From: an uncultured Lentisphaeraceae bacterium
GTDB taxonomy: Bacteria > Verrucomicrobiota > Kiritimatiellia > RFP12 > UBA1067
Length of the DNA: 64,000 nucleotides
Assembly: GCA_964386865.1 (NCBI GenBank)
Contig: CAYLUN010000010.1
Span: forward strand, 20,754 to 84,753
Reading direction: 5' to 3'
Positions 2,234 through 21,795 of the stretch are shown piece after piece. A program made the translations under genes and the position numbers. A model generated the notes under the pieces. That model made no database searches. It was not told where the DNA came from and saw nothing but the letters and a program-made list of their open reading frames with translations. The number at the start of each line of letters is the position of its first letter. Position 1 is the first letter of the stretch.

Positions 2234-4972
2234 TTGATGAAAAACACCACCGCACTCCTCTTCTCACTGGGCCTGATCGCGTGCGCCTCGGCGAAGCCCG
2301 CCGCGCCGGAGATCGAAATCCCGTACACCCGGTTCGTCCTCGAGAACGGGCTCACTTTGCTCGTCCACGAGGACCACAAGGCGCCCATCGTGGCCGTCAA
2401 CACCTGGTACCACGTGGGCTCAAAGAACGAGAAGCCCGGCAAGACCGGCTTCGCGCACCTCTTCGAGCACCTGATGTTCAACGGCAGCGAGCACTTCAAC
2501 GACGACTTCTTCAAGGCCACGGAGAAGGTCGGCGCCACGGACATGAACGGCACCACCAGCGAGGACCGCACCAACTACTTCGAGAACGCCCCGAAGGAGG
2601 CGCTGGACTATCTGCTCTGGCTGGAGTCCGACCGCATGGGCTACATGCTCGGCGCGATCACGCAGGCGCGGCTCGACGAGCAGCGCGGCGTGGTGCAGAA
2701 CGAGAAGCGCCAGTACGAGAACCAGCCCTACTCCATCGCGTACCAGCTCATCACCAAGAGCATCTGGCCTGCCGGCCACCCGTACTCGTGGCCGGTCATC
2801 GGCTCGATGGAGGACCTGAGCGCCGCGTCGCTCGACGACGTCCACGAGTGGTTCAAGACCTACTACGGCGCGGCCAACGCCACGCTCGTCGTGGCGGGCG
2901 ACGTCACCCCGCAGGAGGCGCTCGAAAAGGTCAAGCGCTACTTCAGCCACGTGCCGCCCGGCCCGCCCGTGGCCCGCCACGCCGCGTGGATCGCCAAGCG
3001 CACGGGCACGATGCGGCAGCGCGTCGAAGACCGCGTGCCGCAGGCCCGCCTCTACAAGGTCTGGAACATCCCCAACTACGGCACGACCGACGGCAACCTG
3101 CTCGACCTCGTCTCCGGCGTGCTCTCCGACGGCAAATCGTCGCGCCTCTACAAGCGGCTGGTCTACGACGAGCGCATCGCCACCGACGTGAGCACCTTCG
3201 CGGACCAGAGCGAGATCGCCGGCGCCTTTTACATCATGGTCACGGCCGCGGCGGGCGTGGATCTCCCGCGGATCGAGAAGGCGGTCGACGAGGAGCTGGC
3301 CCGCTTCCTGAAGGACGGGCCGACCTCGCGCGAGCTGGAGCGCGTGAAGACGCAGGTTGAGGCGGGCTTCATCCGCGGCATCGAGCGCATCGGCGGCTTC
3401 GGCGGCAAGTCGGACCAGCTGGCCATGCACAGCGTCTACCTCAGCAACCCCGAGTACCACAAGACCCGCCTGCGCGAGGTCCGCGAGGCGACCGCGCGCC
3501 AGCTCCGCGACGCGGCGCGGGCCTGGCTCTCCGACGGGCAGTACGTGCTCGAACTCACCCCCTTCCCGAAGTACGCCGCGAGCGTCGCGGACGTGGACCG
3601 CGCCCAGCTGCCGGTGCCGGAGATCAAGCCCGTCGTGCGCTTCCCGGCGATCCAGCGCGCCACGCTTTCCAACGGACTCAAAGTTATGCTCGCCGAACGC
3701 CCGAGCGTGCCGATCGTGCAGCTCAACCTGCTCGTGGACGCGGGCTTCGCGGCCGACCAGTTCGCGTCGCCCGGCACCGCGCGGCTCGCGATGGACATGC
3801 TCGCCGAGGGCACGAAGCGGCGCACCTCGCTGGAGATCAGCGACGAGCTCGCGCTGCTCGGCGCGAACCTCAGCGCGGCCTGCTCGCTGGACACCTGCAC
3901 CGTCGCCTTCAACGCGCTGCGGCGCAACCTCGACGCCTCGCTCGACCTCTACGCGGACGTGATCCTCAACCCAGCCTTCCCCGCGGACGATTTCAAGCGG
4001 CGCCAGGAGCAGCGGCTGGCCGCGATCCAGCGCGAGAAAAGCGAGCCCGTCACCATGGGCCTGCGCGTCATGCCGCAGATCCTCTACGGGCCCAAGCACG
4101 CGTACGGCAACCCGCTGACCGGCACCGGCACGGAGGCGAGCGTCGCCCGCCTGACCGCCGCCGACATGGCGCGCTTCCACGGCGCGTGGTTCCGGCCCAA
4201 CAACGCCACGCTGGTGGTCGCCGGCGACATCACGCTCGCCGAGATCCAGCCCAAGCTCGAGCGCCTCTTCGCCGCGTGGCCGCGCGCCGAGGTGCCGAAG
4301 AAGAACATCGGCCCCGTGCCCCTGCCCGAGAAGCCCACCGTGACGATCATCGACCGCCCCGGCTCGATCCAGTCCGTGATCTTTGTCGGCAACGTCGCGC
4401 CGCAGAAGGCCAACCCCGACGAGCTGGCGATCGAGGCCATGAACCTGATCCTCGGCGGCAGCTTCACCTCGCGCATCAACATGAACCTGCGCGAGGACAA
4501 GCACTGGACCTACGGCGCGCGCACCTCGATCGCGGCGGCCTGCGGCCCGCGGCCCTTCTGGGCTTCGGTGCAGGTGCAGGCCGACAAGACCAAGGAGACG
4601 ATGCGCGAGCTCGACAGCGAGTTCCGCGGCATCCTCGGGGCGCGGCCGGTCACGCCGGACGAGTTCGCCCGCACGATCACGAACCAGTCGCTCAAGCTGC
4701 CCGGCTCGTGGGAGACGATCAACAGCGTGGCCGACGCGCTCAACGAGATCGTCTGCTTCGGCCTGCCGGACGACACCCACCAGACGCGCTCGGCCCGCTT
4801 GCAGGCGCTGACGCGCGAGAACCTCGGCGACGCCGCCAAGAAGGTCGTGCAGGCGGACCGCCTGTCGTGGGTGGTGGTGGGCGACCGCGCGAAGATCGAG
4901 GCGGGCGTGCGCGAGCTGGGCTTCGGCGAGATCCGCTACGCCGACGCCGACGGCCAGCCGGTATTGAAGTAG
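2234..4972 (+). CDS. M16-family zinc metallopeptidase (pitrilysin/insulinase-like), lipoprotein
   Basis: 912 aa. Lipoprotein-type signal (LGLIACASA). Inverted zincin motif HxxEH ('HLFEHLMFNGS'). Length consistent with tandem M16 active + inactive domains. Confidence 0.85.
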   Translation: MMKNTTALLFSLGLIACASAKPAAPEIEIPYTRFVLENGLTLLVHEDHKAPIVAVNTWYHVGSKNEKPGKTGFAHLFEHLMFNGSEHFNDDFFKATEKVGATDMNGTTSEDRTNYFENAPKEALDYLLWLESDRMGYMLGAITQARLDEQRGVVQNEKRQYENQPYSIAYQLITKSIWPAGHPYSWPVIGSMEDLSAASLDDVHEWFKTYYGAANATLVVAGDVTPQEALEKVKRYFSHVPPGPPVARHAAWIAKRTGTMRQRVEDRVPQARLYKVWNIPNYGTTDGNLLDLVSGVLSDGKSSRLYKRLVYDERIATDVSTFADQSEIAGAFYIMVTAAAGVDLPRIEKAVDEELARFLKDGPTSRELERVKTQVEAGFIRGIERIGGFGGKSDQLAMHSVYLSNPEYHKTRLREVREATARQLRDAARAWLSDGQYVLELTPFPKYAASVADVDRAQLPVPEIKPVVRFPAIQRATLSNGLKVMLAERPSVPIVQLNLLVDAGFAADQFASPGTARLAMDMLAEGTKRRTSLEISDELALLGANLSAACSLDTCTVAFNALRRNLDASLDLYADVILNPAFPADDFKRRQEQRLAAIQREKSEPVTMGLRVMPQILYGPKHAYGNPLTGTGTEASVARLTAADMARFHGAWFRPNNATLVVAGDITLAEIQPKLERLFAAWPRAEVPKKNIGPVPLPEKPTVTIIDRPGSIQSVIFVGNVAPQKANPDELAIEAMNLILGGSFTSRINMNLREDKHWTYGARTSIAAACGPRPFWASVQVQADKTKETMRELDSEFRGILGARPVTPDEFARTITNQSLKLPGSWETINSVADALNEIVCFGLPDDTHQTRSARLQALTRENLGDAAKKVVQADRLSWVVVGDRAKIEAGVRELGFGEIRYADADGQPVLK

Positions 4973-4980
4973 AGGTTTTT

Positions 4981-6147
4981 ATGCCGAGTGTCAGCCGACG
5001 CATGGGGTGCTTTACGGAATCGGTCATCCGCCGGATGACGCGCGTGGCGAACGCCTGCGGCGCGGTCAACCTGTCGCAGGGCTTCCCGGACTTCGACCCG
5101 CCGCCGGAGCTGCTGGCCGCGCTGCAGCGCGTCAGCCTGACGGGGCCGCACCAGTACGCGGTCACGTGGGGCGCGCCGAACTTCCGCCAGGCGCTGGCCC
5201 GCAAGCAGAGCCGCTTCATGGGAATGCCGGTCGACCCCGAGGCGAACCTCGTGGTCACCTGCGGCAGCACCGAGGCGATGATGGCGGCCATGATGACCGC
5301 CTGTAACCCCGGCGACAAGGTGGTCATCTTCTCGCCCTTCTACGAGAACTACGTGGCCGACACGATCCTCTCCGGCGCGGAGCCGCTCTACGTGGCGCTG
5401 CGGCCGCCGGACTTCTCGTTCGACCCGGCCGAGCTGCGGCGGGCCTTTGAGCAGCGGCCCAAGGCGCTGATCCTCTGCAACCCGGCGAACCCCTCCGGCA
5501 AGGTGTTCCGGCGCGACGAGCTGGATCTGATCGCCGCGCTGGCGCAGGAGTTCGACGCGTTCGTGATCACCGACGAGGTCTACGAGCACATCGTCTACGA
5601 GCCCCATCGGCATGTCTACTTCGCGTCGCTGCCCGGCATGGCTGAGCGCACGATCTCGTGCAGCTCGCTCTCCAAGACCTACTCCATCACGGGGTGGCGG
5701 CTCGGGTACGTGATCGCGCCGCCCGCGGTGATCGATGGAGTGCGCAAGGTGCATGACTTCCTGACGGTCGGCGCGGCCGCGCCGCTGCAGGAGGCGGCGG
5801 TCACGGCGCTCGGCTTCCCGGACAGCTACTATCAGGGCTTGCAGGCGGAGTATGCCGCCAAGCGCACGCTCTTCCTGCGCGGGCTAGACGAGGCGGGGCT
5901 GCGCTACACCGTGCCGCAGGGCGCGTACTACGTGATGGTCGACGTCGGCGAGTTTGGCGTGACCGACGACGTGGCCTTCTGCGAGTGGCTGGCCAAGACC
6001 GTCGGCGTCGCGGCCGTGCCCGGCTCGAGCTTCTTCCGTGAGCCGGTCAACCACCTGATCCGCTTCCATTTCGCCAAGCGCGACGACACGCTGCGCGAGG
6101 CGGTCCAGCGCCTCGCCCGCCTGCGCGCGGCCGTCGCCGGCCGCTGA
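4981..6147 (+). CDS. PLP-dependent aminotransferase, class I/II (methionine/aspartate aminotransferase-like)
   Basis: 388 aa from ATG 4981 (in frame with long ORF 4186..6147). Fold-type I motifs present: '...CSSLSKTYSITGWRLGY' (PLP-Lys region) and 'NPANPSGKVF'. Confidence 0.85.
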   Translation: MPSVSRRMGCFTESVIRRMTRVANACGAVNLSQGFPDFDPPPELLAALQRVSLTGPHQYAVTWGAPNFRQALARKQSRFMGMPVDPEANLVVTCGSTEAMMAAMMTACNPGDKVVIFSPFYENYVADTILSGAEPLYVALRPPDFSFDPAELRRAFEQRPKALILCNPANPSGKVFRRDELDLIAALAQEFDAFVITDEVYEHIVYEPHRHVYFASLPGMAERTISCSSLSKTYSITGWRLGYVIAPPAVIDGVRKVHDFLTVGAAAPLQEAAVTALGFPDSYYQGLQAEYAAKRTLFLRGLDEAGLRYTVPQGAYYVMVDVGEFGVTDDVAFCEWLAKTVGVAAVPGSSFFREPVNHLIRFHFAKRDDTLREAVQRLARLRAAVAGR

Positions 6148-6196
6148 CGCGTAGAGACGCGGCGCCCTGTTGAGAGACGCTAGCACGTGGCACGTC

Positions 6197-6256
6197 GCTG
6201 CGCGGTAGGGACGCCGCCCCGTCGGCGTCCGCGGACGGCAGGGGCTGCCGTCCCTA
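6197..6256. repeat. REP-like GC-rich palindromic element, copy A (between convergent genes)
   Basis: GGTAGGGACG...CGTCCCTACC 10-bp outer stem with nested GACGCCG/CGGCGTC and GGACGGCAG/CTGCCGTCC stems. A ~47-bp core (GCGGTAGGGACGCCGCCCCGyCGGCGTCCGCGGACGGCA) recurs at 20562. Confidence 0.55.
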
Positions 6257-6400
6257 CCTCGCCTCGTGATCGCTCCAACCGAGCGGATGCCGGGCCTGAC
6301 GCCCTCATGACCGTGCAGGTCTTTGTCCAAAGCGCTATCGATTTCGATACTGCGCCGCAACCGCTCTCGATCTTGCTCCCATTTTACAGTCCCAACATCC

Positions 6401-6540
6401 AGATCATGCCGCCCTCCGACCTCTGACCTCCGACCTCCGCCCTCTGACCTCTGACCTCCGCCCTCTGACCTCCGCCCTCTGACCTCCGCCCTCCGCCCTC
6501 TGACCTCCGCCCTCTGACCTCCGCCCTCCGCCCTCCGAAC
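6401..6540. repeat. heptanucleotide tandem repeat array (CCTCYGM)n, ~18 units; reverse complement is (GGTCAGA)n
   Basis: Direct reading: CCTCTGA CCTCCGA CCTCCGC CCTCTGA ... Sits immediately 3' of radC (minus strand). A same-family array in opposite orientation is at 17620-17695. Confidence 0.9.
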
Positions 6541-6542
6541 CC

Positions 6543-7313
6543 TCACTCGAACGCCACGAGGTTCTTTTCGCGCAGGCTGACGTAGCCGGGGGTCGTGGCG
6601 GTCGGGCGGCCGACGATCAGGTGGTCCACCACGCGGATGCCGAGGATGCGGGCGGCCTCGATCAGGCGGCGGGTGATGTCGATGTCCTCCTTTGACGGCG
6701 TGGGGTCGCCGGAGGGGTGGTTGTGCGCGAGGATCACCGAGGCGGCGCTGTAGCGCACGGCTTTGGAGAAGACCTCGCGCGGGTGCACGGGGCTGGTGTC
6801 GAGCAGGCCGCGCGTGGTCTCGACGGGCTGGCCGATGAGCTTGTTCTTGGTGTCGAGCAGGAGCACCCAGAAGATCTCCTGCTGGAGGGCGCGGGCGAGC
6901 GGGCTGACGAGGCGGTAGACGGCCTCGGGCTCGCGGATGGACGCGGTCTCCTGGCGCGGCGCGTGCTGGTGCTGGGCGGCGCGACGGCCGATCTCCAAGG
7001 CGGCGGCGAGCTCCATGCACTTGACCGGGCCGAGGCCCTTGACCTTCAGCCCGCGCAGCTCCTCGAAGTCGGCCTTGGCGAGGTTCGCGAGGCCTTTGAA
7101 GCGGCGCAGCAGCTCGCGGGCCAGCTCGGTGACGTTCTTGCCGGGCACGCCGGAACGCAGGAGGATGGCGAGCAGGACCTCGTCGGGCACGTTCTCCGCG
7201 CCGCGGCGCTGGAACTCTTCGCGCGGGCGCATCTCCTGCGGCAGCTCTTTGACGCGCAGCGGCGCGTCGGGGTAGACGGCGCGGTCAGGGGGATACGAGG
7301 GGAGTGGGTCCAT
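6543..7313 (-). CDS. radC: RadC-like JAB/MPN domain protein (UPF0758)
   Basis: 256 aa. C-terminal JAMM-like motif 'ILAHNHPSGDPTPSKEDIDIT' and HhH-like N-terminal region. Confidence 0.85.
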   Translation of the reverse strand: MDPLPSYPPDRAVYPDAPLRVKELPQEMRPREEFQRRGAENVPDEVLLAILLRSGVPGKNVTELARELLRRFKGLANLAKADFEELRGLKVKGLGPVKCMELAAALEIGRRAAQHQHAPRQETASIREPEAVYRLVSPLARALQQEIFWVLLLDTKNKLIGQPVETTRGLLDTSPVHPREVFSKAVRYSAASVILAHNHPSGDPTPSKEDIDITRRLIEAARILGIRVVDHLIVGRPTATTPGYVSLREKNLVAFE

Positions 7314-8235
7314 GTTGCCTCCACGTGTCGAGCACCCGCTCGGCGACGCGCGCGGGCGGGTCGGTGTCGTCGATGTCGATCCAGACGGCCTGCGTCTGGT
7401 GGCGGAACCAGGTCTCTTGCCGCTTGGCGAGCTGACGGGTGCGGACGACGGTTCGCTCGGCGGCTGCGGCGGGGGTGAGCGCGCCGTCGAGCAGGGCGCA
7501 GGCCTCGGCGTAGCCGATGGCCTGCGAGGCGGTGGGGGACCACGCGGGGTAGGCTTGGCGCAGGGCGCGGGCTTCGTCGACGAGGCCGGCCTTGAACATG
7601 GCCGCGACGCGGCGCGCGATGCGGGCGTGGAGCTGTTCGCGCGGCAGGCGCAGGACGGCGACGGGTGAGGCGGGAGTGCCGCGCCGCCACTGTTCGGGGA
7701 GGCTGCCGCGGGCGTCGAGGTGTTCGAGGGCGCGGATCAGGCGGCGCGGGTTGGCGGGGTCGGCGAGCGCGGCCAGCGCGCCGGGGTCGCGGTCGGCGAG
7801 CGCGCGCTGGAGCGCGGGCAGGCCCTCGCGTTCGTAGAGCGCCTGCCAGCGGGCGCGGGCGGCGGGGTCGGCGGCCGCGCCGTCGAGTCCGTCGGTGAGG
7901 GCTCTGAGGTAGAGGCCCGTGCCGCCGACGGCGATGAGGGACGGGTTCACGGACGAAGCGCCCGTGTCACGGCTGATCGCGCGGGCGGCGTCTGCGAGCC
8001 AGAGGCCGGTGCTGAAGGGCTCGGCGGGGGTGACGAGGTCGATGCCGAAATAGGGGACGCGGCCGCGCTCGGCGGGCGAGGGCTTGGCGGTGCCGATGTC
8101 CATGCCGCGGTAGACGAGCATCGCGTCGGCGGAGAGCACGGCGCAGCCGAGCCGCTCGGCGAGGAGCTGGGCGGCGGCGGTTTTGCCGGTGGCGGTCGCC
8201 CCGGCGAGGAGCCAGGCGTGGTGGGGGTTGTTCAC
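7285..8235 (-). CDS. miaA: tRNA dimethylallyltransferase
   Basis: 316 aa. P-loop 'GATATGKT' and 'IAVGGTGLYLRAL' motifs typical of MiaA. Confidence 0.9.
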   Translation of the reverse strand: MNNPHHAWLLAGATATGKTAAAQLLAERLGCAVLSADAMLVYRGMDIGTAKPSPAERGRVPYFGIDLVTPAEPFSTGLWLADAARAISRDTGASSVNPSLIAVGGTGLYLRALTDGLDGAAADPAARARWQALYEREGLPALQRALADRDPGALAALADPANPRRLIRALEHLDARGSLPEQWRRGTPASPVAVLRLPREQLHARIARRVAAMFKAGLVDEARALRQAYPAWSPTASQAIGYAEACALLDGALTPAAAAERTVVRTRQLAKRQETWFRHQTQAVWIDIDDTDPPARVAERVLDTWRQHGPTPLVSP

Positions 8236-8350
8236 GGTTGCAGGTTACACGTTACAGATTACACGTTGCAGGTTACGCGTTACGGGCTGAGGTGTGGGGG
8301 TGCTCGTTCCATTTCTAGAACCCGTGCCCGGCAACCTGTAACCTGTAACA
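8236..8350. promoter_or_regulatory. GTTAC-rich repeat block in the lspA-miaA intergenic region (candidate operator/promoter for miaA)
   Basis: GTTGCAGGTTAC occurs twice (8237, 8265) with GTTACAGATTAC between. Inverted counterpart GCAACCTGTAACCTGTAAC is at ~8318-8336. Confidence 0.3.
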
Positions 8351-8351
8351 A

Positions 8352-8816
8352 TTAACCAGCAACCTGATTCCTGTGGTCGTGGTGCCACTGGGTGGCGATG
8401 TAGAGGAAGACGCCGCAGCAGATGGAGGCGTCGGCCACGTTGAAGGCCGGGAAGTGCGTGCCCCCCCAGAAGAAGTCGAGGAAGTCGATGACGTAGCTCA
8501 GGCGGACGCGGTCGATGAGGTTGCCGACCACGCCGCCGAAGAGCAGCGACATCGTGACGGCGTTGCCCCAGAGCGGGCCGAAGAGCTGGCGCCGCTTCCA
8601 GACGAGGAAGCCGAGGGTGATCAGCGAGAAGGCGACCAGAAAGATCTGCTGGCCGGCCAGCATGCCCCAGGCTGCGCCGCGGTTCTCGACGTAGCTGAGG
8701 CTGAACAAGCCGGGTATGACGCCGATCGAGCCGACCGGCTTCAGGTAGGCGACGGCCGCGACCTTGGTGAGTTGGTCTGCGGCGACGATCGCCGCCGCGA
8801 GCAACGGGACGCGCAT
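8352..8816 (-). CDS. lspA: lipoprotein signal peptidase (signal peptidase II)
   Basis: 154 aa membrane protein with LspA motifs 'NRGAAWG' and 'FNVADASI'. Confidence 0.9.
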   Translation of the reverse strand: MRVPLLAAAIVAADQLTKVAAVAYLKPVGSIGVIPGLFSLSYVENRGAAWGMLAGQQIFLVAFSLITLGFLVWKRRQLFGPLWGNAVTMSLLFGGVVGNLIDRVRLSYVIDFLDFFWGGTHFPAFNVADASICCGVFLYIATQWHHDHRNQVAG

Positions 8817-16278: not shown

Positions 16279-17619
16279 ATGACATTCGAACAGGCCAAGC
16301 AGATTCTAGAGCAAAGCGGGCAGGGGCACATCCTGAGGTTTTGGGCGCGGCTGAGCGACGCGGAGCGCGCGGGCCTGCTGGCGCAGGTTGCGGAGCTGGA
16401 CTTCGCGAGCGTCGCGCGCATGCAGGGCCTGCTGGCGGCGAAGGCCTCGGCGGCCGCGGTGTCCGAGCCGGCCGCGCCCGAGGTGGTCGAGCTGTCGGGC
16501 GAGGCGCGCGCCGCGGCGGCCGCCGCCGGCGAGGAGGAGCTTCGCGCGGGCAAAGTGGCGGCGCTGCTGGTGGCGGGCGGGCAAGGCTCGCGGCTCGGCT
16601 ACGACGGCCCCAAGGGCGCCTACGCGATCGGCCCGGTCACGAACCGCCCGCTGTTTTACTTTCACGCCCGCAAGATCGTCGGCCTCTGCCGCCGCTACGG
16701 CGTGCGCATCCCGTTCTACGTGATGACGAGCGACGCGAACGACGCGGCCACGCGGCAGCACTTCGAAGAGCATGGCTACTTCGGCCTCGACCGCCGCGAC
16801 GTGACCTTCTTCGTGCAGGGCATGTGGCCCGCTCTGGACGCGCAGGGCAAGATCATCCTCGATCAGCCCGGCCATATCTTCATGAGCCCGGACGGCCACG
16901 GCGGCACGCTGACCGCGCTCGAGAAGAACGGCTGCTTGGCCGACATGGAGCGCCGCGGCATCAGCACGGTCTACTATTTCCAGGTGGACAACCCGCTGGT
17001 CGAGATCGCCGACCCGGCCTTCATCGGCCTGCACGTGGCGCGCGGCGCGGACGTCTCGCTCAAGCTCTGCGCCAAGCGCGAGCCGAAAGAGGGGCTCGGC
17101 GTGGTCGTCGTGCGCGACGGTCGCTCCGAGATGGTCGAGTACACCGAGCTGACCGACGAGCAGGCCAACCGCCGCACGCCGGAGGGCGAGTTGTACTTCA
17201 AGTACGGCAGCGTCGCGCTCCACGTCTTCTCGTTCGCCTTCCTCAAGGCCGAGGCCGGCCGCCCCCTGCCGCTGCACGTCGCGCACAAGAAGATCCCGGT
17301 GTGCGCGGACGACGGCACGGTGGCCAAGCCCGAGAAGAACAACGGCTACAAATTCGAGAAGTTCATCTTCGATGTGCTGCCGGACGCGAAGACGGTGGTC
17401 AATCTGGCGTTCGACCGCGCGGAGGAGTTCTCGCCCGTGAAGAACGCGACGGGCAACGATTCGCCCGCCACCTGCCGGCGCGACATGCAGGCCAAGTGGC
17501 TGCGCTGGTTCGGCGTGGCGGGCGTGCCGGTGCCGGCGATGCCGGTCGAGATCGACCCCGCCTACGCGCTGGACGCGGCGGAGCTGAAGGCCAAGGGCGT
17601 GCTGCTGGAGGCCCGGTGA
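16279..17619 (+). CDS. UDP-sugar / UDP-N-acetylhexosamine pyrophosphorylase (UAP1/USP eukaryotic-type family)
   Basis: 446 aa. 'LLVAGGQGSRLG' pyrophosphorylase signature and 'FQVDNPLV' motif typical of the UDPGP family. Confidence 0.75.
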   Translation: MTFEQAKQILEQSGQGHILRFWARLSDAERAGLLAQVAELDFASVARMQGLLAAKASAAAVSEPAAPEVVELSGEARAAAAAAGEEELRAGKVAALLVAGGQGSRLGYDGPKGAYAIGPVTNRPLFYFHARKIVGLCRRYGVRIPFYVMTSDANDAATRQHFEEHGYFGLDRRDVTFFVQGMWPALDAQGKIILDQPGHIFMSPDGHGGTLTALEKNGCLADMERRGISTVYYFQVDNPLVEIADPAFIGLHVARGADVSLKLCAKREPKEGLGVVVVRDGRSEMVEYTELTDEQANRRTPEGELYFKYGSVALHVFSFAFLKAEAGRPLPLHVAHKKIPVCADDGTVAKPEKNNGYKFEKFIFDVLPDAKTVVNLAFDRAEEFSPVKNATGNDSPATCRRDMQAKWLRWFGVAGVPVPAMPVEIDPAYALDAAELKAKGVLLEAR

Positions 17620-17695
17620 GCCGGAGGCCGGAGATCAGAGGTCAGAGGTCAGAGATCAGAGGTCAGAGATCAGAGGTCAGAGGTCAGAGCCTCGC
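17620..17695. repeat. heptanucleotide tandem repeat array (GRTCAGA)n, ~9 units
   Basis: GATCAGA GGTCAGA GGTCAGA GATCAGA ... sits immediately 3' of the UAP gene stop. Same heptamer family as 6401-6540 but on the opposite strand. Confidence 0.9.
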
Positions 17696-17736
17696 CAACC
17701 AACCAAACAACGCATTCAACTTCTTAAGGAGACAAC

Positions 17737-19305
17737 ATGAGACCCGTGGTACTGATTATCCGTGACGGCTGGGGCATCAACCCCCGCGAGGAAGGCAACG
17801 CCGTGTTTGCGGCCAAGACCCCGGTGGTCGACCGGCTGAAGACCCGCTACCCGTGGACGCGCCTGGCGTGCAGCGGCGAGGCCGTGGGCCTGCCGGACGG
17901 CTATCAGGGCTCGAGCGAGGTCGGCCACCTGAACATGGGCGCGGGCCGCGTCGTGATCCAAGAGCTGAAGCGTATCGACGACGGGCTGAGTACGGGCGAG
18001 CTGTTCACGTCGCCGAAGTGGGCCGGGCTGGTCGCGAACTGGAAGAAGAGCGGCGGCGCGCTGCACTTCCTGGGCCTGCTGCAGGACGAGGGCGTCCACG
18101 CCCACCAGGAGCACCTGTTCAAGCTCATGCGCCGCGCCCGCAGCGACAACCCCGCGGGCCGCATCGTGATCCACCCGTTCCTCGACGGCCGCGACACGCC
18201 GCCGCGCAGCACGCTCGAATACATCGCGCGTCTGGAAAAGGAGATGGCGGCGGTCGGCAACTGCGTGATCGGAACCATCCAAGGACGCTATTACGCGATG
18301 GACCGCTCCAAGAACTACGGCCTCACCGACCAAGCGTACGCCTGCCTCGTGGAGGCGAAGGGCCGCGCGGCGGACAACGCGATCGACGCGGTCAAGGCGT
18401 CGTACGACAAGGACATCACGCCGGACAAGACGCCGATGGTGGACGAGTACATCCCGCCGCACGTCATCGGCAGCTACGCGGGCATCAAGGACGGCGACTC
18501 GGTCATGCACATCAACTATCGTCAGGATCGGGCGATCCAGCTTACGCAGGCCTTCGTGTGCGACGGCTACAAGGGCACGCGCGCCGTGCGCCCGCAGGTC
18601 GTCTACCTCGGCTTCACCCGCTACTGGGACGAGTTCACCGAATACCTGCTGGGCGCCATGGGCGGCGAGGGCGGCATGCCGAACCTGCTGGGCGAGGTGA
18701 TCTCAAAGGCGGGGCTGCGCCAGCTTCGCATCGCGGAGACGCAGAAGTTCCGCCACGTCACGAGCTTCTTTAACGGCAAGTCCACCCAGCCCTATGCGGG
18801 CGAGGACCAGGTCGAAGTGCCCGGGCGGTTCGATCCGGCGACTTTCGCTAGCCATCCGGAGATGGATGCGTATCAGGTGGCCGAGGAGCTGCTCAAGCGG
18901 CTCGCGAACAACCCCTACGCGTTTGTCGCGGTGAACTTTGCGAACGGCGACATGGTGGGCCACACCGGCGACTTCGACGCGGCGCGCCGTGCGGTGGAGG
19001 TGGTGGACGCGTGCATCGGCAAGCTGCTGCCGCGTTTGCTTGAGCTGGACGCGCAGGTGCTGATTACCGCCGACCATGGCAACTCGGAGCAGATGCTCGA
19101 CTACACGACGGGCATGGTGAAGACCAGCCACACGCTGAACGACGTGGAGTGCATCTACGTCGCGAAGGATGCGGTCGGCGTCAAGCTCCTGCCGGCGGGC
19201 AAGCTGTGCGACGTCGCGCCGACGGTGCTGGCGCTGCTGGGCCTGCCGCAGCCGGCGGACATGACGGCGCAGAACCTGGTGGTCGGGCGTCCGGACTGGG
19301 AGTAG
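17737..19305 (+). CDS. gpmI: 2,3-bisphosphoglycerate-independent phosphoglycerate mutase
   Basis: 522 aa. iPGM motifs ('LIIRDGWG', 'SSEVGHLNMGAGR', 'ADHGNSE'). Confidence 0.9.
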   Translation: MRPVVLIIRDGWGINPREEGNAVFAAKTPVVDRLKTRYPWTRLACSGEAVGLPDGYQGSSEVGHLNMGAGRVVIQELKRIDDGLSTGELFTSPKWAGLVANWKKSGGALHFLGLLQDEGVHAHQEHLFKLMRRARSDNPAGRIVIHPFLDGRDTPPRSTLEYIARLEKEMAAVGNCVIGTIQGRYYAMDRSKNYGLTDQAYACLVEAKGRAADNAIDAVKASYDKDITPDKTPMVDEYIPPHVIGSYAGIKDGDSVMHINYRQDRAIQLTQAFVCDGYKGTRAVRPQVVYLGFTRYWDEFTEYLLGAMGGEGGMPNLLGEVISKAGLRQLRIAETQKFRHVTSFFNGKSTQPYAGEDQVEVPGRFDPATFASHPEMDAYQVAEELLKRLANNPYAFVAVNFANGDMVGHTGDFDAARRAVEVVDACIGKLLPRLLELDAQVLITADHGNSEQMLDYTTGMVKTSHTLNDVECIYVAKDAVGVKLLPAGKLCDVAPTVLALLGLPQPADMTAQNLVVGRPDWE

Positions 19306-20561: not shown

Positions 20562-20612
20562 GCGGTAGGGACGCCGCCCCGCCGGCGTCCGCGGACGGCA
20601 AGGGGCCGCCTC
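20562..20612. repeat. REP-like GC-rich element, copy B (between convergent amidase and coaC genes)
   Basis: GCGGTAGGGACGCCGCCCCGCCGGCGTCCGCGGACGGCAAGGGGC matches the 6197 element (~45/47 nt). Followed by a CTCAGCGGCTGAG hairpin that overlaps the coaC stop. Confidence 0.5.
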
Positions 20613-20614
20613 AC

Positions 20615-21151
20615 TCAGCGGCTGAGCAGGCGCTGGGATGCCGCATACACCTCTGCGGCCTCGGCCATGCGCCCTTTGCCCGTGGTGCCGCAGGCGAGGT
20701 CGCCCGTTCCCGCATCCACAAAGGTCGCGCCCCGCGCCGCGAGCGCCGCGAGATTGGCCTGCGTGGCCGGGTTCTCCCACATTCCCGTGTTCATGGCCGG
20801 GGCCACCAGCAGCGGCGCGCGCGTGGCCAGCGCCGTGGCGGTCAGCAAGTCGTCGGCCAGGCCGTGCGCCAGCTTGGCGGCCACGTTCGCGGTGCAGGGC
20901 GCAACCACCAGAAGCTCCGCGCGCTCGGCCAGCGAGATGTGTCCGGGAATCCACTCGTCGGGCTCGTCAAAGAGGTCGACGCCCACGGGGTTGCGCGAGA
21001 GGGTACGGAAGGTGAGGGGGGAGACGAACCGCGTGGCGGCCTGCGTCATAAGCACGTGAACGTCGTGCCCGCCTTTGATGAACAGGCGCGTCAGCTCGCA
21101 CGCCTTGTAGGCGGCGATGGAGCCGGTGACTCCCAGCAGGATGTTGGCCAT
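20615..21151 (-). CDS. coaC: phosphopantothenoylcysteine decarboxylase-type flavoprotein (stand-alone CoaC)
   Basis: 178 aa. 'ILLGVTGSIAAYKA' flavoprotein N-terminus and 'PAMNTGMWENP' motif. Confidence 0.7.
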   Translation of the reverse strand: MANILLGVTGSIAAYKACELTRLFIKGGHDVHVLMTQAATRFVSPLTFRTLSRNPVGVDLFDEPDEWIPGHISLAERAELLVVAPCTANVAAKLAHGLADDLLTATALATRAPLLVAPAMNTGMWENPATQANLAALAARGATFVDAGTGDLACGTTGKGRMAEAAEVYAASQRLLSR

Positions 21152-21201
21152 GGCGGAGCCTTCAGTTAGGAGTTAGGATTTAGGAGTTGGGGGAGGGGGC
21201 G

Positions 21202-21795
21202 TCAGATCAGGCCAGCCCTGACGTTGATGATGTCGCAGAGCCGCTTGAACGCGGTTTGCAGGTCGTCGTTCTCGATCTGGTACATGTACGAGCCGGCGTG
21301 CGCCATCTCCCGCTCCGCGTTTCGGACGCGCTTTTCGATGACCGCCGGGGAATCGGTGCCCCGGTGCTCCAGGCGGGCCAGCAGCTCGTCCATCGAGGGC
21401 GGGTTGATGAAGATGTCGAGGAACCCGCGCCGCATCGGGTCGTCGTCCGGGAGTTCGGACACGTGCTTGCGCACCTGCTCCGCGCCGGCCACGTCGATGT
21501 CGAGCAGGATGCACTGGCTCTCGCGCAGGGCTTCATAGATCGGCGCTTTCAGCGTGCCGTAGTAGTTGTCGTGCACCAGCGCGTGCTCGAGGAAGCTGCC
21601 CTCCGCGACCAGCTTCTTAAAGGACTCGATCGTCATGAAGTGGTAATCGACGCCGTCCTCCTCGTTCAGGCGCGGCTCGCGGGTCGTGCAGGAGACCGAG
21701 TAGCAGAGCTCGGGATAGCTCTGCAGCAGCATGTCGCACAGCGTGGTCTTGCCGGCGCCTGAGGGCGCGGAAATCACAATGAAAAGCGGGGTCAT
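21202..21795 (-). CDS. gmk: guanylate kinase
   Basis: P-loop 'SAPSGAGKTT' and guanylate kinase fold motifs. Start assigned to MTPLFIVIS (ATG 21795) within longer ORF 21202..21846. Confidence 0.85.
   Translation of the reverse strand: MTPLFIVISAPSGAGKTTLCDMLLQSYPELCYSVSCTTREPRLNEEDGVDYHFMTIESFKKLVAEGSFLEHALVHDNYYGTLKAPIYEALRESQCILLDIDVAGAEQVRKHVSELPDDDPMRRGFLDIFINPPSMDELLARLEHRGTDSPAVIEKRVRNAEREMAHAGSYMYQIENDDLQTAFKRLCDIINVRAGLI

Follow-up and report, generated by a model that had tools for sequence, protein, structure and literature searches.

What kind of element is a heptanucleotide repeat that stands directly behind the stop codon of a gene, in the sense of that gene, and does so twice in one stretch of bacterial DNA? 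The question is raised by 64,000 nucleotides from an uncultured Lentisphaeraceae bacterium (contig CAYLUN010000010.1; this whole stretch is called the window below), in which one array, A1, adjoins the stop of radC and another, A2, that of a pyrophosphorylase gene, hereafter the UAP gene (Table 1). A preliminary description, made from the letters of the window, had offered three possibilities, namely a genome-specific RNA element of the 3' untranslated region (3'-UTR), a terminator or insulator microsatellite, and a slippage-prone tract whose unit number varies between strains.

Table 1. Heptamer arrays of the window and genes beside A1 and A2.
Feature	Positions	Strand	Description
Array A1	6408..6540	minus	19 heptamer units in radC sense; spacer between convergent genes
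Array A2	17619..17689	plus	10 heptamer units in UAP gene sense
Array A3a	8333..8349	minus	(GTTACAG)x2.4 in sense, 2 nt past lspA stop (8352-8354)
Array A3b	8236..8284	minus	7 TGTAACC-type units (CGTAACG...TGCAACC) in sense, up to miaA GTG (8233-8235)
Array A4	21164..21199	minus	about 5 pyrimidine-rich, CCTAACT-type units in sense; spacer between gmk and a flavoprotein gene
radC	6543..7313	minus	RadC-like JAB domain protein; stop adjoined by A1
UAP gene	16279..17619	plus	UDPGP-family (UAP) pyrophosphorylase (UDPGP 7.6e-36); stop adjoined by A2
gpmI	17737..19305	plus	cofactor-independent phosphoglycerate mutase; downstream of A2; own AAGGAGA Shine-Dalgarno (SD)
Aminotransferase gene	5035..6147	plus	class I/II aminotransferase; convergent with radC

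On the minus strand, A1 opens with a single GTTCGGA and closes with a single GGGCGGC, between which GGGCGGA (8 units), GGTCAGA (7 units) and GGTCGGA (2 units) are mixed. Its first unit follows the radC TGA (6543-6545) after 2 nt, exactly as had been described; the outer boundary formerly placed at 6401 lies 7 nt too far out, about 18 units had been counted, and whereas CCTCYGM is a good rendering of the plus strand, (GGTCAGA)n as the name of the repeat matches only 7 of the 19 units. A2 reads AGCCGGA and GGCCGGA, then GATCAGA three times and GGTCAGA five times. It begins with the A of the UAP gene TGA (17617-17619), at a distance of 0 nt, and its assignment to this stop stands; its end had been set about 6 nt too far, at 17695, and its units estimated at about 9. 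The gpmI ATG comes 47 nt beyond the end of A2. In both arrays the G/A-rich strand is the sense strand of the gene whose stop is adjoined, and their units can be summarised jointly as GRNCRGA. Both are built of 7-nt units set head to tail over a length greater than chance, as heptanucleotide long simple sequence repeats (SSRs) are, and a two-unit probe (GGTCAGAGGTCAGA, at most 2 mismatches) found 21 matches in the window, 20 of them inside A1 and A2, with 0.33 expected from shuffles. Tandem Repeats Finder (TRF) scored A1 at 148-204 and A2 at 97-104, with best periods of 35 nt (93% matches) and 21 nt, respectively, which indicates that blocks of five units in A1 and of three units in A2 have been duplicated, in line with the earlier proposal of a slippage-type microsatellite.

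The genes beside these arrays (radC, the UAP gene and gpmI) are housekeeping genes, and the radC product matches Pfam RadC at 1.5e-41, with the domain extending to residue 251 of 256. The spacer that holds A1 also contains a REP-like palindrome at 6200-6262, between the aminotransferase stop and A1. Read-through from the aminotransferase gene would bear the C-rich strand of A1. An Rfam search gave no match at the arrays and matched only two tRNAs.

Period 7 is otherwise conspicuous in the window, with 5 runs vs. 0.27 in shuffles, and no runs of period 4, 5, 6, 8 or 10 were found there. All five arrays are intergenic (5/5), although 90.7% of the window is coding according to the gene calls of this analysis; heptamer arrays would be confined to non-coding DNA because their unit length is no multiple of 3. 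A3a and A3b are inverted partners, and the pair gives a long hairpin across the lspA-miaA spacer (-44.2 kcal/mol; 0/200 shuffles fold equally well). A4, with the units CCCCTCC CCCAACT CCTAAAT CCTAACT CCTAACT, begins 2 nt past the gmk stop (21202-21204). Two of the arrays occupy a leader position, just before a start: A3b, with a gap of 0 nt to the miaA GTG, and A4, which ends 12 nt short of the flavoprotein-gene ATG (21149-21151).

The placement of A1 and A2 recurs far outside this organism. Genes were called with a purpose-written caller, based on codon log-odds trained per locus, that gives exact stops and approximate starts; it reproduces the window genes, also on 8-kb pieces, and yields an SD-type purine peak at -10 to -5 of the predicted starts. 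On two viral contigs (L209 and L220) the caller is unreliable, and a plain ORF test was employed there for qualitative use only. With all arrays set so that GGTCAGA lies on the top strand, we scored stop abutment when the array started no more than 11 nt from the upstream stop, and start abutment when it ended no more than 15 nt from the start of the downstream gene. Across phyla, 91 of 120 arrays were intergenic. Stop abutment was seen in 28/47 arrays with the purine-rich strand in sense (purine-sense) vs. 2/38 with the pyrimidine-rich strand in sense (pyrimidine-sense; Fisher 7e-8), the latter rising to at most 6/42 when overlapping cases are added. Start abutment had the opposite preference (9/34 pyrimidine-sense vs. 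1/40 purine-sense; Fisher p = 0.004), and the next start was at least 59 nt away in 39 of 40 purine-sense arrays. For arrays of other heptamers the rule is weaker (stop abutment in 8/24 vs. 3/38). Orientation in the sense of the upstream gene, as claimed for the two arrays at the outset, is therefore no coincidence; random orientation and location, named beforehand as the outcome that would speak for a generic microsatellite, are not what these counts display. A1 and A2 are typical cases of a general placement rule, and this rule is apparently universal.

The abutted ORFs are genuine genes, since all seven that were tested (7/7) have Pfam domains, three of them with a listed match that ends no more than 8 residues from the C-terminus. 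Most of the arrays scored as lying inside a gene are found in sense ORFs that have no stop ahead of the array and read into it; several of these ORFs stop 0-40 nt behind the array, acquiring tails such as QRSEVRGQ, and a few read a 21-nt array as an in-frame linker. Such read-through is possible because (GGTCAGA)n is free of stops in every frame, while its complement has TGA in all three.

Simple causes of this polarity were considered and did not hold. The stop codon is not a mutated repeat unit, as its phase relative to the heptamer register is uniform; the use of TAG at abutted genes (39% vs. 29% background) is not significantly biased (p = 0.29); growth from one end is not apparent, the longest perfect block lying mid-array on average (relative position 0.51; 17 vs. 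21), with neither end younger; and seeding by composition finds no general purine bias after stops to build on (0.49-0.52 in 366 genes of relatives). Polar placement is thus an observation for which register, stop bias, polar growth and purine bias are all without support. The idea that co-directional genes shun C-rich sense RNA in their spacers was also rejected, C-rich-sense arrays numbering 25 and G-rich-sense arrays 28 between such gene pairs.

The unit itself is widely distributed. A scan for three consecutive GRTCAGA units, with one genome per species, gave at least 119 genome stretches, spread over more than 10 phyla; a random 21-mer in which three positions are two-fold should give about 2 (by arithmetic, with equal base frequencies assumed). 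Among the matches listed, and judged by record title, were about 39 from Acidobacteriota, about 24 from Verrucomicrobiota in the wide sense, about 10 each from Bacteroidota and Desulfobacterota, 9 from Planctomycetota, 7 from Chloroflexota, 4 each from Cyanobacteria and Pseudomonadota, and some from several other groups; the arrays most like A1 and A2 belong to Verrucomicrobiota genomes (L031 and L049). On viral contigs GGTCAGA x3 was present in 44 stretches, compared to 4, 7 and 11 for three composition-matched control heptamers (GGCTAGA, GATGGCA and GAGTGCA, respectively), making it 4-11 times commoner than these; of the published repeats, TAACTGA x3 gave 107 stretches and GGGAATC x3 gave 3. 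This breadth disposes of the idea that the repeat is genome-specific. The recurrence across phyla and the viral excess hint at selection or at a sequence-specific mutational bias. In a text search of the literature, GGTCAGA dimers were met in eukaryotic papers only, with no prokaryotic mention in the literature covered. Some phage-like contigs carry many arrays 2-13 nt ahead of ATG codons, and the arrays in this position look functional.

The preference for period 7 is also seen irrespective of the unit. The loci selected for their arrays, together with the window (923 kb), contain 189 period-7 arrays vs. 0-10 for each other period in the range 5-12, and about 77 of the 189 have other units. 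Unselected relatives plus the window (986 kb) gave 14 period-7 arrays vs. 0-6, all of them intergenic (14/14).

Comparison with relatives, which for the A2 site were found via the gpmI protein cluster, showed that the arrays come and go. In L390, whose gpmI has 89.7% nucleotide identity, four degenerate units (ACCAGAG AGCAGAG AACAGAG GGCAAAG) stand directly after a TAA stop; in L391-L393 (87.6%), a 34-nt spacer is free of arrays, with an unchanged TTAAGGAGA ribosome site; and in L389 other genes are inserted. Unit numbers at this site are accordingly 10, 4 and 0, and the gpmI SD-ATG region is unaffected by the change in length. At the A1 site, no array follows radC in L122 (RadC 82% amino acid identity). 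An array in L031 was rejected as the orthologue of A1: the gene upstream of it also ends in ...SFE-stop, but it encodes a prepilin-like protein, not RadC. At the A4 site, 5 units in the window compare with 4 in L390 and 0 in L392, and about 3.5 were also seen; the gmk-flavoprotein spacer of the window equals that of L390 plus one 7-nt unit, and that of L389 is 3 nt shorter than that of L390. In L122 and L182, 1-3 proto-units are present between lspA and miaA vs. about 10 in the window. Unit number thus varies between genomes at the A2, A4 and A3 sites, which bears out the suspicion that it differs among close relatives. No variation was observed within the population, the A3 spacer being identical in 7 independent runs and A4 in 2. 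As relatives do without arrays at the A1 and A2 sites, the arrays look dispensable, and the 3'-UTR element once envisaged is unlikely as one dedicated to radC or to the UAP gene.

Taken together, we favor, with a probability of about 0.6, the reading that the arrays are slippage-born heptanucleotide microsatellites, tolerated where steps of 7 nt spare reading frames, turning over at about the genus level and without a role dedicated to radC, the UAP gene or gpmI. An array would originate from a short proto-repeat beside an ORF boundary; slipped-strand mispairing or unequal exchange would then lengthen or shorten it, often by blocks of several units, slippage being the probable generating process given the duplicated blocks. 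It would persist only where a 7-nt change spares the frames, i.e. between genes or at the very 3' end of one. In terms of polarity, it is the 5' end of the purine-rich strand that touches the neighboring ORF: the purine-rich strand, free of stops and starts, is the mRNA sense right after a stop, as in A1, A2 and A3a, and the pyrimidine-rich strand, with stops in all frames, the mRNA sense right before a start, as in A3b and A4. Judging from their position, the arrays are probably transcribed, and they would then add to 3' untranslated or intercistronic RNA an unstructured, purine-rich stretch laden with SD-like GAGG and GGAGG. Most likely, they have no dedicated function for radC or the UAP gene. 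Their neutrality is a presumption that fits this turnover; pure neutrality does not predict the polarity, because sites and orientations that should be equally harmless, above all the opposite orientation at stops, are strongly avoided.

This residue of unexplained polarity leads us to weigh functions in translation and transcription. We regard it as rather unlikely that the arrays are RNA contact elements for the translation machinery, in which an SD-like run after a stop would hold or recycle ribosomes, as a decoy or an aid to re-initiation, and the opposite sense would provide a pyrimidine-rich leader that recruits ribosomes without an SD via S1 or cold-shock-type proteins. A1 has in sense 11 GGAGG and 18 GAGG motifs within 133 nt and A2 has 6 GAGG, neither contains a start or stop codon in sense, and both are unstructured: folding of either strand was never better than shuffles (z -1.5 to +1.95). 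Leaders also have something to offer this proposal, as A3b and A4 lie at starts, the relative without A4 (L392) has a canonical AGGAGG SD there instead, the ATG of long ORFs on viral contigs follows the pyrimidine-rich end after 2-13 nt with no SD, and binding of S1, Csp or CsrA has been proposed for TAACTGA (MacGregor 2015, PMC4679880). Against it, the same genes in relatives do without arrays, the convergent pair at A1 leaves no downstream gene for re-initiation, nearly all purine-sense arrays are too remote from the next start (the 39 of 40 noted above), and many heptamers that abut stops have no SD-like motif (GATCAGA, GATTGCA, GAACGCG and CGAAACG). Bacteroidota make little use of SD pairing, and arrays are present there too. 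A broader idea, which we would treat as unlikely, makes all arrays with a TCAG/CTGA core (GGTCAGA, TAACTGA and variants) one pan-bacterial and phage "punctuation" element that is read strand-specifically by the ribosome and S1, by cold-shock proteins or by Rho, the purine-rich strand marking the end of a cistron and its complement the next start. If true, it would explain the recurrence in more than 10 phyla, the 4-11 fold excess and the 5' ends set exactly on ORF boundaries, and A1 and A2 would be working copies, not junk.

Rho figures in a further proposal, of an insulator specific to one strand: RNA of the opposite strand, being C-rich, would load Rho and halt convergent or antisense transcription before it enters the abutted gene, while the G-rich sense transcript would be refractory. 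Rho loads on C-rich, G-poor, unstructured RNA of at least about 70-80 nt, and the antisense strand of A1 fits this by composition only, the plus strand having 58% C and 15% G over 133 nt, 57 YC dinucleotides and a fold of -5.1 kcal/mol (z +1.95; 197/200 shuffles fold at least equally well). A1 also lies between convergent genes, and no consensus terminator was found in 6050-6650 or 17500-17850, nor a consensus promoter near A1 or A2. We consider this insulator improbable, given that C-rich-sense arrays are equally common between co-directional genes (25 vs. 28), where efficient Rho sites would cause polarity, that there is no obvious antisense transcript for A2 to stop, and that a REP-like hairpin already stands between the aminotransferase stop and A1. 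Less credible still are G-quadruplex-forming repeats like GGGAATC and GGGGAYT, acting on DNA or RNA beside the ORF. With published heptamers of that ability the arrays share the placement rule, and 9 GGG runs occur in A1, along with 5 relaxed motifs whose loops reach up to 12 nt; the canonical motif (four G3 runs with loops of at most 7 nt) is absent from both A1 and A2, however, G runs in A2 and in the widespread variants GATCAGA, AATCAGA and AGTCAGA are limited to G2 or a single G, and the rule is also valid for G-poor heptamers. Contingency loci, in which a change in unit number would switch the flanking gene, could be imagined since unit number varies among relatives, but phase variation is already largely refuted by position: A1 and A2 lie after stops, neither in an ORF nor between promoter hexamers. 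The housekeeping neighbors, the invariance of A3 and A4 over their 7 and 2 independent runs and the unchanged gpmI SD-ATG region at altered A2 lengths make it scarcely believable. We give next to no weight to the idea that the assembly is at fault, or that a CRISPR or terminator was misread. Short-read contigs do terminate inside A2, from either side, and these ends cut the array; three contigs that run into A2 from its two sides nevertheless agree exactly in sequence, A1 is spanned with 100% identity by an independent JGI contig, the sole other contig for it, and hundreds of independent assemblies have the same kind of array. CRISPR repeats of about 21-48 nt with unique spacers are a different matter from a period of 7 nt without spacers, as the preliminary description had rightly concluded, and its suggestion of a terminator fails on the want of a hairpin or U-tract and on folding no better than that of shuffles on both strands.

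With slippage-born microsatellites as the preferred reading, the outcome for the window is chiefly a clarification, in that the arrays are ordinary members of this class and no new RNA element, terminator or CRISPR-like system. A1 and A2 do not merit annotation as regulatory elements of radC or the UAP gene, and a practical consequence is that short-read contigs of this organism end in A2. Three points go slightly beyond the literature covered: 1) GGTCAGA (GRNCRGA) occurs in at least 119 genome stretches of more than 10 phyla and on phage contigs; 2) a rule drawn from two G-rich heptamers in three genomes extends to GGTCAGA across phyla, with single-digit-nt precision at stops; 3) some genomes have ORFs that continue through an array, which then serves as a short C-terminal tail or an in-frame linker. 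Should a mechanism, be it mutational or functional, underlie the polarity, it would be relevant to very many bacterial intergenic regions.

Among known systems, the phase-variable SSRs of host-adapted pathogens share with the arrays slippage-prone tandem repeats of changing unit number; they have units of 1-5 nt in the ORFs or promoters of surface-structure genes, in contrast to the 7-nt units of A1 and A2 after the stops of housekeeping genes. REP/BIME elements are likewise short repeated intergenic elements found just 3' of stops, and one occurs in the A1 spacer itself; they are dispersed inverted repeats that form hairpins, whereas A1 and A2 are unstructured direct tandem repeats. Heptanucleotide repeats of Calothrix are labelled STRR. 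Three such cyanobacterial repeats are cited in PMC4692102. According to Mrazek et al. 2007, as cited in PMC4679880 and PMC4692102, heptanucleotides are the commonest long SSR, and polymerase slippage was proposed; as the same two papers summarise them, long SSRs with units of 5-11 nt are typical of large, GC-rich genomes of non-pathogens, and neither a placement rule nor GGTCAGA appears in the surveys as so summarised.

The TAACTGA arrays described by MacGregor 2015 (PMC4679880) in marine Beggiatoaceae, Cyanobacteria and Bacteroidetes lie immediately ahead of start codons. They resemble ours as intergenic heptamers with a scattered spread across phyla and a shared TCAG/CTGA core. Their ...CTGA strand, with TGA in every frame, stands just before starts and replaces the SD, an arrangement matched by A3b, A4 and the viral pyrimidine-sense GGTCAGA arrays. 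A1 and A2, in contrast, follow the opposite mode, with the stop-free strand in sense after a stop: A1 is without a downstream gene, and A2 ends well ahead of gpmI, which has its own SD. The unit differs too, GRNCRGA not being TAACTGA; only the final A4 unit reads TAACTGA.

Closest in placement are the strongly intergenic tandem heptamers of Rehm et al. 2015 (PMC4692102), GGGAATC in two Xanthomonas genomes and GGGGA(C/T)T in Nostoc. In that study, intergenic repeats are near an ORF on their 5' side, whichever the orientation of the ORF; most are 0-50 bp after a stop (coding strand) or before a start (non-coding strand); they are rare between divergent genes and most frequent between co-directional ones; and repeats at the same site differ in length and sequence among related species, while the flanking genes share no function. 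The view that heptamers so placed are unusual in bacteria does not survive this record and that of TAACTGA. A1 and A2 are at home in such company, lying 2 nt and 0 nt after their stops, well within 50 bp, with the G-rich strand as coding strand, and they share with GGGAATC and GGGGAYT the tandem 7-nt units, the intergenic location, the polar ORF-adjacent placement and the variability at the same sites. They differ from them in their unit, GRNCRGA, in having no canonical G-quadruplex motif and no preference for four units, and in belonging to other phyla. The arrays of the window are heptanucleotide microsatellites of this described bacterial kind, with a new unit and in new phyla.

The array that follows the radC stop (A1) gives GGAGG in its last unit, and 5 nt further on lies the ATG of a 7-codon mini-ORF, MIWMLGL* (6380-6410, minus strand), a juxtaposition that is probably due to chance. 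Downstream of A2, the array between the UDPGP-family gene and gpmI, the spacer continues as a C/A-rich low-complexity run (CCAACCAACCAAACAAC, 17690-17720), which the relative L390 has in a longer form and which the 34-nt spacer of the relatives L391-L393 lacks. In a further relative, L389, the UDPGP-family gene is separated from gpmI by two inserted genes, one of them for a DNA methylase (L389 2099-3986), in the place that A2 occupies in the window. The CCTAACT array of the gmk-flavoprotein spacer (A4) is absent in L392 (4206-4244), where a canonical AGGAGG ribosome site precedes the flavoprotein gene; the window (21149-21204), L390 and L389 carry the array, with only GAAGG left of the ribosome site. 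The window also carries two copies of a REP-like palindrome (GCGCGGTAGGGACGCCGCCCC ... GGGCTGCCGTCCCTACC), the first 17 nt of copy 2 being identical to copy 1.

Copies of the REP-like palindrome in the window
Feature	Position	Location
REP-like palindrome, copy 1	6200-6262	53 nt 3' of aminotransferase stop
REP-like palindrome, copy 2	20564-20610	29 nt 3' of amidase-like gene stop

Among the genome loci with heptamer arrays, L098, L003, L030, L041 and L111 have ORFs that continue through the array. In L098 (7338-7368), a 31-nt array of about 4.4 units codes for QRSEVRDQRS; upstream of it lies an ORF of 1078 residues, and the segment downstream seems to resemble a response-regulator receiver domain. 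In L003, L030, L041 and L111 the arrays are read as short C-terminal tails (QRSEVRGQ...). In a contig of Ca. Binatia (JBGPIK010000030, L079), about 2 kb (about 4900-6950) is crowded with heptamer arrays, at least 12 different ones, which run in both orientations and have AGGTCAG, CGGATTG, AGCAGGG and CAAAGCG among their units. The 25-kb viral contig IMGVR_UViG_3300033076_001536 (L209 and L220) has 11 exact (GGTCAGA)x3 matches in 7 arrays, in five of which the ATG of a long ORF lies 2-12 nt past the pyrimidine-rich end, without an SD.

Within miaA, 6 independent Logan contigs (L379-L381, L383-L385) stop 144-156 nt inside the gene (window about 8080), probably as a result of strain polymorphism breaking the assemblies. 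The two inverted heptamer arrays of the lspA-miaA spacer form a single long hairpin (8230-8356, minus strand; -44.2 kcal/mol, z -2.95), extending from 4 nt past the lspA stop to 14 nt short of the miaA GTG, and a smaller version of it is found in the relative L182. L028, L029, L030, L048, L053, L088 and L111 likewise have one heptamer array in two inverted copies, about 40-100 nt apart; these would form long hairpins or cruciforms, their arrangement being that seen at 8236-8349 in the window.
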